In this document: positions 30,362 to 38,154 of the stretch, in pieces
Numbering within the stretch: position 1 is the first letter of the stretch
Layout: each line of letters begins with the position of its first letter
NCBI RefSeq assembly: GCF_016026235.1
Contig: NZ_CP065613.1
Reading direction: 5' to 3' (one strand)
Length of the DNA stretch: 64,000 nucleotides
DNA from: Escherichia coli
Lineage (GTDB): Bacteria > Pseudomonadota > Gammaproteobacteria > Enterobacterales > Enterobacteriaceae
The notes under the pieces: generated by a model
Databases searched by the model: none
Told to the model about the DNA's origin: nothing
The model's input: the letters and a program-made list of their open reading frames with translations, nothing else
Made by a program: the position numbers and the translations under genes

Positions 30362-31288
30362 TTAACTGCGTGGGTTGCCGAAAATTTCTAAAAATCCGCT
30401 GATTTCCGGCCTGCGCTGGGTAAACAAGGTCACAATATCTTCTACCGCTTTGCCGCTGCCAAATTTGCGCCATGCCAGACTCAATGGCGAAGGAGGGCGC
30501 ATCGTTGGGATTACCCGGCTGACCAGTTGTTGATTATCGATCATTGACTGGCAAAGCGATTTTGGCAAAAAACCAATGCCAACGCCCGCCAGATGGGCGG
30601 CGATTTTCGTTTCCATATCGGGAACAATAATCTCTTTTTGACCCGGCAATCGCCAGGCGACGCGTTTGGTTAAGGTGCGGGCGCTGTCTTCAATATTGAC
30701 CGCCGGAAAGCGCCGCAACTGCGCTTCTGTTAACGGCTCTTCAACGTTCGCCAGCGGATGATCCGCCGCCATGACAAATCGCCATTGCACCGATCCTAAG
30801 GGATCAAGACTAAAGGTATTTGCCAGCGCCTCAGTTCCCGTGACGCCGATAGCCAGCGAAAAACCTTCGTACAATAGCGAGTCCCAGACTCCCATATAGA
30901 TTTGTCGAGAGATGTGAAACTGGGTAAAGGGGTAACGTTCATTCAGCCACGCCAGCAACTGGGCGACGGCCTGGGGGTTGTAGAGCAGGTTGTTGATGAC
31001 AATATTCACCTGGCGTTCCACGCCATCATTCACCTGTTGCAGCTCGCTTGGCATACTTTCCAGCCAGCTCAGCCAGTCTCTGGCCTGGGAAAGTAGATGC
31101 TCGCCAGCCGCTGTCAACGTCACGCTACGAGTCGTGCGGAAAAACAGCGCTACTCCGGTATTCTCTTCCAGAAGTTTAATGCGATAACTGATCGTCGCCG
31201 TGGTTTTACATAATCGTTCTGCCGCTTTTGAAAAACTTCCTGTTTCAGCAACCGCAATGAAAGTCCGCAAGGTTTCTGGATCGAACAT
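30362..31288 (-). CDS. allS: LysR-family activator of allantoin catabolism
   Basis: 308-aa ORF with N-terminal HTH and LysR substrate-binding domain; divergent from allA. Confidence 0.9.
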
Positions 31289-31395: not shown

Positions 31396-31412
31396 TTGGA
31401 AAAATATTCCAA
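31396..31412. promoter_or_regulatory. AllR-type operator TTGGAAAAATATTCCAA in the allS-allA intergenic region
   Basis: Imperfect palindrome with TTGGAA/TTCCAA arms, the same core as the site upstream of gcl. Confidence 0.65.
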
Positions 31413-31517: not shown

Positions 31518-32000
31518 ATGAAACTTCAGGTATTACCGTTAAGTCAGGAAGCCTTTAGTGCTTATGGCGACGTAATCGAAACGCAGCAACGGGATTTTTT
31601 CCATATTAACAATGGCCTGGTGGAGCGTTACCACGATTTGGCGCTGGTTGAGATTCTTGAGCAAGACCGTACGCTTATCAGCATTAACCGCGCGCAACCG
31701 GCGAATCTGCCGCTGACCATTCACGAACTCGAACGTCATCCGCTGGGTACTCAGGCCTTTATCCCGATGAAAGGTGAGGTGTTTGTGGTGGTCGTGGCGT
31801 TAGGTGACGACAAACCAGACCTGTCAACCCTGCGGGCGTTTATTACCAACGGCGAACAGGGAGTGAATTACCATCGTAACGTCTGGCATCACCCACTTTT
31901 CGCCTGGCAGCGTGTCACCGATTTTCTGACCATCGATCGCGGCGGCAGTGACAACTGTGATGTTGAAAGTATTCCTGAACAGGAACTCTGTTTTGCGTGA
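31518..32000 (+). CDS. allA: Ureidoglycolate lyase
   Basis: 160-aa ORF recognised as AllA. Confidence 0.93.
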
Positions 32001-32077: not shown

Positions 32078-32893
32078 ATGACGGAAGTTAGACGGCGCGG
32101 CAGGCCAGGACAGGCGGAGCCTGTGGCACAGAAGGGCGCACAGGCATTAGAGCGGGGAATTGCGATTCTGCAATATCTGGAAAAAAGTGGGGGAAGTTCG
32201 TCGGTTAGCGATATTTCTCTCAATCTGGATTTGCCGCTCTCCACGACCTTTCGCTTGCTGAAGGTTTTACAGGCAGCGGATTTTGTCTATCAGGACAGTC
32301 AGTTAGGCTGGTGGCATATAGGATTAGGTGTCTTTAACGTCGGTGCAGCGTACATCCATAACCGCGATGTCCTCTCCGTCGCCGGGCCGTTTATGCGCCG
32401 CCTGATGTTACTTTCCGGCGAAACGGTCAATGTCGCGATCCGTAACGGCAATGAAGCGGTATTAATTGGTCAGTTAGAGTGTAAATCGATGGTCAGGATG
32501 TGTGCTCCACTGGGCAGTCGTCTGCCACTGCATGCTTCCGGTGCGGGCAAAGCGCTGCTTTATCCGCTGGCGGAAGAGGAGTTGATGAGCATCATTCTGC
32601 AAACCGGTTTGCAGCAGTTTACGCCAACTACGCTTGTGGATATGCCCACTCTGCTGAAGGACCTGGAACAAGCGCGTGAACTGGGCTATACCGTAGATAA
32701 AGAAGAGCATGTTGTAGGTCTGAATTGCATAGCTTCAGCAATTTACGATGATGTAGGTAGCGTTGTTGCCGCTATCTCCATCTCCGGGCCTTCATCAAGA
32801 CTGACAGAAGATCGTTTTGTCAGTCAGGGTGAGCTGGTCAGAGACACCGCCCGCGATATCAGCACGGCGTTGGGACTGAAAGCACATCCATAG
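32078..32893 (+). CDS. allR: IclR-family repressor of the allantoin regulon
   Basis: 271-aa ORF with IclR-type HTH and effector domain. Confidence 0.93.
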
Positions 32894-32945
32894 TGTCTGT
32901 CGCATCCCGCTCTGCGGAGCGGGTTTTTTTGACAAAATTTGAAAG

Positions 32946-32962
32946 TTGGAAAATTTTTCCAA
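32946..32962. promoter_or_regulatory. AllR-type operator TTGGAAAATTTTTCCAA upstream of gcl
   Basis: Perfect 8-1-8 palindrome 21 bp upstream of the gcl ATG. Confidence 0.7.
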
Positions 32963-32982
32963 TTAATAGGGGTAGGAATAAA

Positions 32983-34764
32983 ATGGCAAAAATGAGAGCC
33001 GTTGACGCGGCAATGTATGTGCTGGAGAAAGAAGGTATCACCACCGCCTTCGGCGTTCCGGGAGCTGCAATCAATCCGTTCTACTCAGCGATGCGTAAGC
33101 ACGGCGGTATTCGTCACATTCTGGCGCGTCATGTGGAAGGTGCTTCGCACATGGCGGAAGGTTATACCCGCGCAACGGCAGGGAATATCGGCGTATGTCT
33201 GGGGACTTCCGGTCCTGCGGGCACGGACATGATCACCGCGCTCTATTCCGCTTCTGCTGATTCCATTCCTATTCTGTGCATTACCGGCCAGGCACCGCGC
33301 GCCCGTCTGCATAAAGAAGATTTTCAGGCTGTTGATATTGAAGCAATTGCTAAACCGGTCAGCAAAATGGCGATTACAGTACGTGAAGCGGCGCTGGTGC
33401 CTCGCGTGCTGCAACAGGCATTTCACCTGATGCGTTCTGGTCGTCCGGGTCCGGTACTGGTGGATTTACCGTTCGACGTTCAGGTTGCGGAAATCGAGTT
33501 TGATCCTGATATGTACGAACCGCTGCCGGTCTACAAACCTGCTGCCAGCCGTATGCAGATCGAAAAAGCTGTAGAAATGTTAATCCAGGCCAAACGTCCG
33601 GTGATTGTTGCCGGGGGCGGGGTAATTAATGCTGACGCAGCTGCACTGTTACAACAGTTTGCTGAACTGACCAGCGTTCCGGTGATCCCAACGCTGATGG
33701 GCTGGGGCTGTATCCCGGACGATCATGAACTGATGGCCGGGATGGTGGGTCTGCAAACCGCGCATCGTTACGGTAACGCAACGTTGCTGGCGTCCGACAT
33801 GGTGTTTGGTATCGGTAACCGTTTTGCTAACCGTCATACCGGTTCGGTAGAGAAATACACCGAAGGGCGCAAAATCGTTCATATCGATATTGAGCCGACG
33901 CAAATTGGTCGCGTGCTGTGTCCGGATCTCGGCATTGTCTCTGATGCTAAAGCGGCGCTGACACTGCTGGTTGAAGTGGCGCAGGAGATGCAAAAAGCGG
34001 GTCGTCTGCCGTGTCGTAAAGAATGGGTCGCCGACTGCCAGCAGCGTAAACGCACTTTGCTGCGCAAAACCCACTTCGACAACGTGCCGGTGAAACCGCA
34101 GCGCGTGTATGAAGAGATGAACAAAGCCTTTGGTCGCGATGTTTGTTATGTCACCACCATTGGTCTGTCACAAATCGCTGCGGCACAAATGCTGCATGTC
34201 TTTAAAGACCGCCACTGGATCAACTGTGGTCAGGCTGGTCCGTTAGGCTGGACGATTCCGGCTGCGCTAGGGGTTTGTGCCGCTGATCCGAAACGCAATG
34301 TGGTGGCGATTTCTGGCGACTTTGACTTCCAGTTCCTGATTGAAGAGTTAGCTGTTGGCGCGCAGTTCAACATTCCGTACATCCATGTGCTGGTCAACAA
34401 CGCTTATCTGGGGCTGATTCGCCAGTCGCAGCGCGCGTTTGATATGGACTACTGCGTGCAACTCGCTTTCGAGAATATCAACTCCAGCGAAGTGAACGGT
34501 TACGGCGTCGACCACGTAAAAGTAGCGGAAGGTTTAGGTTGTAAAGCGATTCGCGTCTTCAAACCGGAAGATATTGCGCCAGCCTTTGAACAGGCGAAAG
34601 CCTTAATGGCGCAATATCGGGTACCGGTAGTCGTGGAAGTTATTCTCGAGCGTGTGACCAATATTTCGATGGGCAGCGAACTGGATAACGTCATGGAATT
34701 TGAAGATATCGCCGATAACGCAGCGGACGCACCGACTGAAACCTGCTTCATGCACTATGAATAA
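32983..34764 (+). CDS. gcl: Glyoxylate carboligase (ThDP-dependent)
   Basis: 593-aa ORF from MAKMRAV; ThDP-enzyme fold; track start at 32893 is an upstream extension. Confidence 0.95.
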
Positions 34765-36531: not shown

Positions 36532-36699
36532 TACCCGCAATAAAAATGGCCGATATCAGAATATGAATCGGCCAGCAATATTAAAAAAGAAAGCAGCCAA
36601 AGATGTTGCTTCAGTATTAAAAATAATATTTTTATTTTATTTGTTCCTCATAGCTAGATTAAAACAACGTTATTCGATACGTGAAATTAAGAGGGATTT

Positions 36700-38154
36700 A
36701 TGGAACATCAGAGAAAACTATTCCAGCAACGCGGCTATAGCGAAGATCTATTGCCGAAAACGCAAAGCCAGCGGACCTGGAAAACATTTAACTATTTTAC
36801 CTTATGGATGGGTTCGGTTCATAACGTTCCCAATTATGTGATGGTCGGCGGCTTTTTTATTCTCGGCTTGTCTACCTTTAGTATTATGCTGGCAATTATC
36901 CTCAGCGCCTTTTTCATTGCCGCGGTAATGGTATTAAACGGCGCTGCGGGCAGTAAATACGGCGTACCGTTTGCCATGATCCTGCGTGCTTCTTACGGCG
37001 TACGTGGCGCACTGTTTCCCGGATTATTAAGAGGCGGTATTGCTGCCATTATGTGGTTTGGCCTGCAATGTTACGCGGGGTCACTGGCCTGCTTGATTCT
37101 GATTGGCAAAATCTGGCCGGGATTTTTAACTCTCGGTGGTGATTTCACGCTGTTAGGGCTTTCTCTACCGGGCTTAATTACTTTCTTACTCTTCTGGCTG
37201 GTCAACGTTGGTATAGGTTTTGGCGGTGGCAAAGTTTTAAATAAATTCACTGCCATTCTTAACCCGTGCATCTATATCGTTTTCGGCGGTATGGCGATTT
37301 GGGCGATTTCGCTGGTCGGGCTCGGTCCAATCTTTGACTACATTCCGAGCGGTATTCAGAAAGCAGAAAACAGTGGCTTCCTGTTCCTGGTGGTGATAAA
37401 CGCGGTAGTTGCGGTCTGGGCGGCACCGGCGGTGAGCGCATCCGACTTTACGCAAAACGCCCACTCGTTTCGTGAGCAAGCGCTGGGGCAAACGCTGGGT
37501 TTAGTTGTGGCCTATATTCTGTTTGCGGTCGCGGGGGTATGTATTATTGCCGGAGCCAGTATTCATTACGGCGCTGATACCTGGAACGTGCTGGATATTG
37601 TTCAGCGTTGGGACAGCTTGTTCGCCTCGTTCTTTGCGGTACTGGTTATTCTGATGACGACTATCTCCACTAACGCCACCGGTAATATTATTCCTGCCGG
37701 TTATCAGATTGCCGCTATTGCACCGACGAAACTGACTTATAAAAACGGCGTACTGATTGCCAGTATTATCAGCCTGCTGATCTGCCCGTGGAAATTAATG
37801 GAAAATCAGGACAGTATTTATCTGTTCCTCGATATTATCGGCGGAATGCTTGGTCCGGTAATTGGTGTCATGATGGCGCATTATTTTGTGGTGATGCGTG
37901 GGAAAATTAATCTTGATGAACTGTATACCGCACCTGGCGATTATAAATATTACGATAACGGTTTTAACCTCACTGCGTTTTCAGTAACTCTGGTGGCCGT
38001 TATTTTATCTCTTGGCGGTAAGTTTATTCCCTTTATGGAACCGTTATCGCGTGTTTCATGGTTTGTCGGCGTCATCGTCGCCTTTGCGGCCTACGCCTTA
38101 TTAAAGAAACGTACAACAGCAGAAAAAACAGGAGAGCAAAAAACCATAGGTTAA
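36700..38154 (+). CDS. ybbW: NCS1-family putative allantoin permease
   Basis: 484-aa polytopic ORF within the allantoin cluster. Confidence 0.9.
   Translation: MEHQRKLFQQRGYSEDLLPKTQSQRTWKTFNYFTLWMGSVHNVPNYVMVGGFFILGLSTFSIMLAIILSAFFIAAVMVLNGAAGSKYGVPFAMILRASYGVRGALFPGLLRGGIAAIMWFGLQCYAGSLACLILIGKIWPGFLTLGGDFTLLGLSLPGLITFLLFWLVNVGIGFGGGKVLNKFTAILNPCIYIVFGGMAIWAISLVGLGPIFDYIPSGIQKAENSGFLFLVVINAVVAVWAAPAVSASDFTQNAHSFREQALGQTLGLVVAYILFAVAGVCIIAGASIHYGADTWNVLDIVQRWDSLFASFFAVLVILMTTISTNATGNIIPAGYQIAAIAPTKLTYKNGVLIASIISLLICPWKLMENQDSIYLFLDIIGGMLGPVIGVMMAHYFVVMRGKINLDELYTAPGDYKYYDNGFNLTAFSVTLVAVILSLGGKFIPFMEPLSRVSWFVGVIVAFAAYALLKKRTTAEKTGEQKTIG

Follow-up and report, generated by a model that had tools for sequence, protein, structure and literature searches.

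In Escherichia coli K-12, the operator of the gcl operon has been described as a binding site of the repressor AllR (Rintoul et al. 2002 J Mol Biol 324:599), and the corresponding AllR recognition motif, KTTGGAAWAWTWTTCCAAC, is listed in Table 1 of PMC8222616, citing Rintoul 2002. PMC12535856 and PMC11323563 report that AllR binds the K-12 gcl promoter and that binding is relieved by glyoxylate; in these sources and in PMC10163214, glyoxylate is the inducer and allantoin a co-repressor. In PMC13300388, a K-12 Pgcl fragment of about 82 bp drives a lux reporter under repression by AllR; that paper also gives verbatim an "AllR recognition site" included in the allS-allA spacer. For tetrameric regulators of the IclR family, tandem palindromes 18 to 22 bp apart are typical (PMC8222616). 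Furthermore, PMC10163214, citing Hasegawa 2008, mentions a RutR site upstream of the gcl operon.

Here, we analyzed a short palindrome between allR and gcl in a 64-kb stretch of E. coli DNA (the whole of which is called the window). We are highly confident that it is the gcl-operon operator for the AllR protein encoded immediately upstream. This operator is already known from K-12; the copy in the window differs in carrying a common natural allele of the free central base and two nearby polymorphisms.

Position of the palindrome and match to the AllR motif

The 17-mer TTGGAAAATTTTTCCAA is a perfect inverted repeat with 8-bp arms around a single central T at position 32954, at exactly the coordinates given in the initial annotation (Table 1). 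It is located in the 89-bp allR-gcl spacer, i.e., in the control region of an operon of the AllR regulon, and reads in context TTTGAAAG TTGGAAAATTTTTCCAA TTAATAGGGGTAGGAATAAA ATG. Its last base lies 21 bp ahead of the A of the gcl start codon (with 20 bases in between), as annotated, and its center 29 bp ahead. The placement between allR and gcl was also correct, with NCBIfam equivalogs identifying the flanking open reading frames as AllR and glyoxylate carboligase. The allR label agrees with the RefSeq annotation in matching E. coli genomes, and the encoded protein is 100% identical to AllR of K-12.

Table 1. Features of the allantoin locus in the window
Feature	Position	Strand	Remarks
allS	30362-31288	minus	Upstream of the gcl site
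Second AllR operator (probable)	31396-31412	.	TTGGAAAAATATTCCAA; divergent allS-allA control region
allA	31518-32000		Upstream of the gcl site
allR	32078-32893	+	IclR-family repressor; NCBIfam equivalog NF007548, 619 bits (cutoff, 406)
allR intrinsic terminator	32906-32930	+	CCCGCTC-TGCG-GAGCGGG plus T-run; stem 32906-32923; terminator scan
gcl core promoter (putative)	32929-32957	+	Deduced from sequence and alignment
AllR operator of the gcl operon (highly probable)	32946-32962	.	TTGGAAAA-T-TTTTCCAA; two 8-bp half-sites, free central base
gcl Shine-Dalgarno region	32969-32975	+	GGGGTAG in the window; GAGGTAG in K-12 and most genera
gcl	32983-34764	+	Glyoxylate carboligase, first gene of the repressed operon; TIGR01504, 1280 bits
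hyi, glxR	Downstream of gcl		Equivalog matches

Palindromicity alone is not significant above chance in the 64-kb window. Perfect palindromes whose arms measure at least 8 bp, with 0 to 3 bases between them, numbered eight versus 5.2 ± 2.5 expected from 200 dinucleotide shuffles; for those with a gap of 1, the numbers were 3 observed versus 1.33 expected. The match to the AllR motif gave a different picture. With up to two mismatches, KTTGGAAWAWTWTTCCAAC occurs at two sites in the window, one before gcl and one between allS and allA, where 0.03 would be expected by chance. The allS-allA site matches the published motif at all 19 positions including the flanks, and the gcl site at 18 of 19, the sole mismatch being the 3' flanking C, which is T here. 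Scanning with TTGGAAAATTTTTCCAA itself and up to three mismatches yielded four strand-hits (0.42 expected; none of 100 shuffles reached four), and the only other site in the 64-kb window was again 31396-31412. A full-text literature search for the exact 17-mer gave no match.

Two further perfect palindromes were observed in this part of the window. One, the A/T palindrome TAAAAATAATATTTTTA at 36618-36634, is located between the end of glxR (36531) and an open reading frame (36700-38154) that is presumably the allantoin transporter gene. The other, CTGCAAACCGGTTTGCAG, is an 18-bp palindrome inside the allR coding sequence (32597-32614) with PurR-like GCAAAC half-sites whose spacing is 2 bp too wide. 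It is present in E. coli, including K-12, and disrupted in all other genera by synonymous as well as non-synonymous substitutions; it is therefore probably accidental, and we dismissed it as a functional site for lack of conservation. A scan for the RutR motif TTGACCANNTGGTCAA with up to three mismatches, covering 32800-33050 and the whole window, revealed no match near gcl.

Conservation across Enterobacterales and alleles in E. coli

Orthologous loci were collected by a scan based on the AllR protein, with one genome per species, so that the motif played no part in the selection. This yielded 22 loci, 20 of them complete, from about 10 genera, including Superficieibacter, Klebsiella, Raoultella, Citrobacter, Buttiauxella, Izhakiella, Atlantibacter, and Providencia, with AllR identities from 66% to 100%. 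Whole loci were scanned for TTGGAAWAWTWTTCCAA with up to three mismatches. Each of the 20 complete loci contained exactly two matches, all with at most one mismatch, located in the allS-allA spacer (where covered) and just before gcl; no further match was found in about 136 kb of loci. The allS-allA operator was kept in all 20 loci that cover the spacer, namely 19 complete ones (L002 lacks the spacer) and the truncated L023. The distance from the operator center to the gcl ATG ranged from 21 to 36 bp and was 27 to 30 bp in 16 of 21 sequences.

Alignment of 21 sequences covering the 100 bp ahead of gcl gave a footprint of information per column. TTGGAA is invariant in all 21 sequences, and TTCCAA is invariant except for one C-to-T change in Izhakiella australiensis, so that 11 of these 12 positions reach 2.0 bits. 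The five central positions carry 1.0 to 1.7 bits, the center base being A in 12 and T in 9 sequences, and the flanks mostly have less than 1 bit. The only other conserved block named in the information profile is the allR terminator; a Shine-Dalgarno block 8 to 14 nt before the ATG is also conserved across genera in the alignment. Conservation together with allR across species supports the reading as an operator, as this is the behavior that would be expected of one. Thus, the published motif, K-12 orthology, and cross-genus conservation all speak for the AllR-type identity proposed in the initial annotation.

One record in the collection, L009 (CACSKA010000001.1, "Chryseobacterium sp. 18061"), holds a typical enterobacterial allS-allA-allR-gcl locus, and both its gene positions and its two operator sequences agree with L021 ("Citrobacter sp. 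18056"), which stems from the same project. Mislabeling or contamination of the L009 record is probable.

The 5 kb around the site are 98.84% identical to K-12 MG1655, and the site region was matched in 5404 of 5426 complete E. coli genomes. In a gap-free alignment to NC_000913.3, the orthologous K-12 sequence is TTGGAAAAATTTTCCAA, identical at 16 of 17 positions. Since the two differ in the central base alone (A in K-12, T in the window), the window site is the exact reverse complement of that of K-12, and the two alleles would be equivalent to a two-fold symmetric dimer. Among eight E. coli alleles sampled, positions 32944, 32954 (the center), 32964, 32968, and 32970 were polymorphic, and the arms never. 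The central T is linked with T at 32964 (O157:H7, O111, and the window), the central A with A at 32964 (K-12); the former haplotype is frequent among E. coli strains (O157:H7, O111, and others). G at 32970 and the full 89-bp spacer are each shared with only 1 of the 5404 matching genomes, for the spacer NZ_CM149567.1.

In E. coli MS 198-1 (L030, NZ_CP146687.1; positions 1-60), unrelated DNA has replaced the sequence ahead of the allR terminator loop, and gcl has no annotated allR beside it. This points to an insertion or rearrangement by which the adjacent repressor gene was lost, with operator and gcl left intact.

Promoter geometry and proposed mode of repression

The allR terminator, whose stem and T-run are conserved across genera, forms the upstream limit of the gcl promoter. 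We infer a -35 element TTGACA (32929-32934), followed by a 17-bp spacer and a weak -10 element AATTTT (32952-32957) inside the operator, with a predicted transcription start near 32964. In most genera, the T-run ends in a TTG or TAGAC-like element, and position 32964 is A in 19 of 21 sequences; the window carries T at this predicted start, K-12 A. As the Shine-Dalgarno region must be transcribed, the start should lie upstream of about 32969. Only about 45 bp separate the terminator from the Shine-Dalgarno region, with the operator in the middle, so the operator would have to overlap the core promoter. The geometry thus argues well for the annotated overlap with the probable gcl promoter, the exact start position being a prediction. 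The K-12 Pgcl reporter fragment corresponds to about 32895-32976 of the window.

A consensus promoter scan did not call the TTGACA/AATTTT promoter, which it missed because the -10 element is weak. Its sole call, TTTCCA-17-TAAAAT, was rejected, since the -10 element overlaps the ATG and the start would lie in the coding sequence. The combination of TTGAAA (32939-44), an 18-bp spacer, and TTAATA (32963-68) was likewise discarded, as its start would fall 3' of the conserved Shine-Dalgarno region. Cappable-seq supplements listed no start in the region. Genome-wide transcription start sets contained none at the proximal gcl promoter and only one inside allR, as expected of a repressed promoter. In Kim et al. 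2012, the only start assigned to gcl is located 284 nt upstream, inside allR (532856, version-2 coordinates), and it coincides with the 5' end of the small RNA AllZ. A literature text search for the gcl promoter gave no further start information. AllZ (b4831) originates from the 3' part of allR and spans 533629-533863 in K-12, which corresponds to 32696-32930 of the window (RefSeq; PMC8175672); in K-12, this RNA ends at the allR terminator, directly ahead of the gcl promoter.

By analogy with the K-12 gcl promoter, AllR would bind the window allele and be released from it by glyoxylate. A symmetric AllR dimer, possibly within a tetramer, is likely to place one helix-turn-helix on each TTGGAA half-site. 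The operator, spanning about -18 to -2, would lie between the -35 element and the start and probably cover the -10 element, so that, with these putative promoter elements, bound AllR would repress by occlusion, keeping RNA polymerase off. With AllR bound, gcl-hyi-glxR and the downstream genes would be silent. When glyoxylate builds up, it would bind AllR, which would then leave the DNA and allow transcription of the operon; for allantoin, the opposite effect has been reported, i.e., it would act as co-repressor. Through the near-identical allS-allA operator, this AllR switch would also control allA and allS, the latter encoding an activator.

A second palindrome that would form a tandem pair was not detected in the spacer with up to three mismatches, the only other site being 1550 bp away. 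The pair spaced by 18 to 22 bp is absent from every genome examined; each control region has a single dimer-sized site, and the two sites are about 1.55 kb apart. An AllR tetramer could conceivably bridge the allS-allA and gcl operators, an idea to which we assign a low probability. If AllR binds DNA as a tetramer, bridging would loop out allA-allR and couple repression of three promoters. It is, separately, an equally tentative thought that the haplotypes differ in basal gcl expression: the central T and T32964 alter the third base of the deduced -10 element and the predicted start, and lineages might differ accordingly.

The operator would serve as a switch by which the gcl operon is expressed according to the availability of glyoxylate and allantoin; in this respect, our analysis adds little, as a textbook operator was re-identified. 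AllR appears to read invariant TTGGAA/TTCCAA arms with a free central base at a fixed position about 29 bp before gcl. This site definition could aid annotation of AllR regulons in other Enterobacterales and the design of glyoxylate biosensors.

Alternative readings and comparison with known operators

The site might also, or instead, be an operator for IclR, the glyoxylate-sensing paralogue of AllR, which would then cross-regulate gcl. The two proteins are close paralogues, as AllR scores 248 bits on the IclR equivalog model, and the IclR consensus TGGAAATNATTTCCA (PMC8222616, Table 1) matches 32947-32961 with two mismatches. Both of these, however, fall on the symmetric positions next to the center (A/T for T/A), which are the specificity positions telling the two motifs apart, and at the center-adjacent position A is strongly kept in the gcl sites (18 to 19 of 21). 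Moreover, a two-mismatch match to the IclR box is not significant, since at least one turns up in 25 of 100 shuffles; all loci examined have the site together with allR, and our literature search found no report of IclR control of gcl. We therefore consider a role of IclR very unlikely.

Even less probable is a role of the inverted repeat as a hairpin in RNA, be it allR read-through transcripts or the gcl leader, with effects on termination, stability, or translation. A stem of 9 bp closing a 3-nt loop is indeed predicted for the RNA (-7.1 kcal/mol, z = -1.9 versus shuffles), and the sole arm substitution, C to T in Izhakiella australiensis, would keep a G-U pair. Yet the AU-rich stem is weak, with 4 of 200 shuffles folding equally well, and there are no compensatory double changes. 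Arms fixed in sequence next to freely variable positions beside the loop are the mark of recognition by a protein. The motif is, moreover, found again between the divergent allS and allA, where a shared RNA role does not exist. In addition, with a start near 32964, the repeat would be outside the gcl mRNA, and a strong terminator precedes it. A functionless A/T-rich intergenic palindrome would be compatible with the near-chance rate of such repeats (8 versus 5.2 ± 2.5) and with the unconserved, seemingly accidental palindrome in allR (32597-32614). This reading, too, has next to no probability: chance is excluded by recurrence of the AllR motif at a second regulon promoter (0.03 expected) and by its conservation in 20 of 20 orthologous loci from about 10 genera while neighboring bases diverge. 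AllR binding to the gcl promoter has, besides, been published (PMC12535856, PMC11323563). The same K-12 reports, of a gcl promoter bound by AllR and released by glyoxylate, bear out the initial annotation in treating an AllR operator in this region as established knowledge.

The site can be compared with three known operators. The IclR box (TGGAAATNATTTCCA) of the aceBAK and iclR promoters shares with it the regulator family, the inducer glyoxylate, the TGGAA/TTCCA core, and an odd-length palindrome, whereas the bases around the center are A-N-T in the AllR site and T-N-A in the IclR box, which belongs to another regulon and another protein. The allS-allA operator, in a spacer identical to that of K-12, has the TTGGAA...TTCCAA arms, the 17-bp length, and the regulator in common with the gcl site, and both are located in control regions of allantoin-regulon promoters. 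Its sequence is identical to the "AllR recognition site" of PMC13300388. It differs in its central five bases (AAATA, making it an imperfect palindrome, versus AATTT at gcl) and its flanks (T...C, the full 19-mer fit, versus G...T at gcl), and it serves two divergent promoters. The third is the K-12 gcl operator of Rintoul et al. (motif per PMC8222616), which occupies the same position in the allR-gcl spacer, with the same arms TTGGAAAA/TTTTCCAA, the center 29 bp before the gcl ATG, and the same flanking terminator and -35 element TTGACA. From it, the window differs by the central T for A, T for A at 32964, and G for A at 32970.
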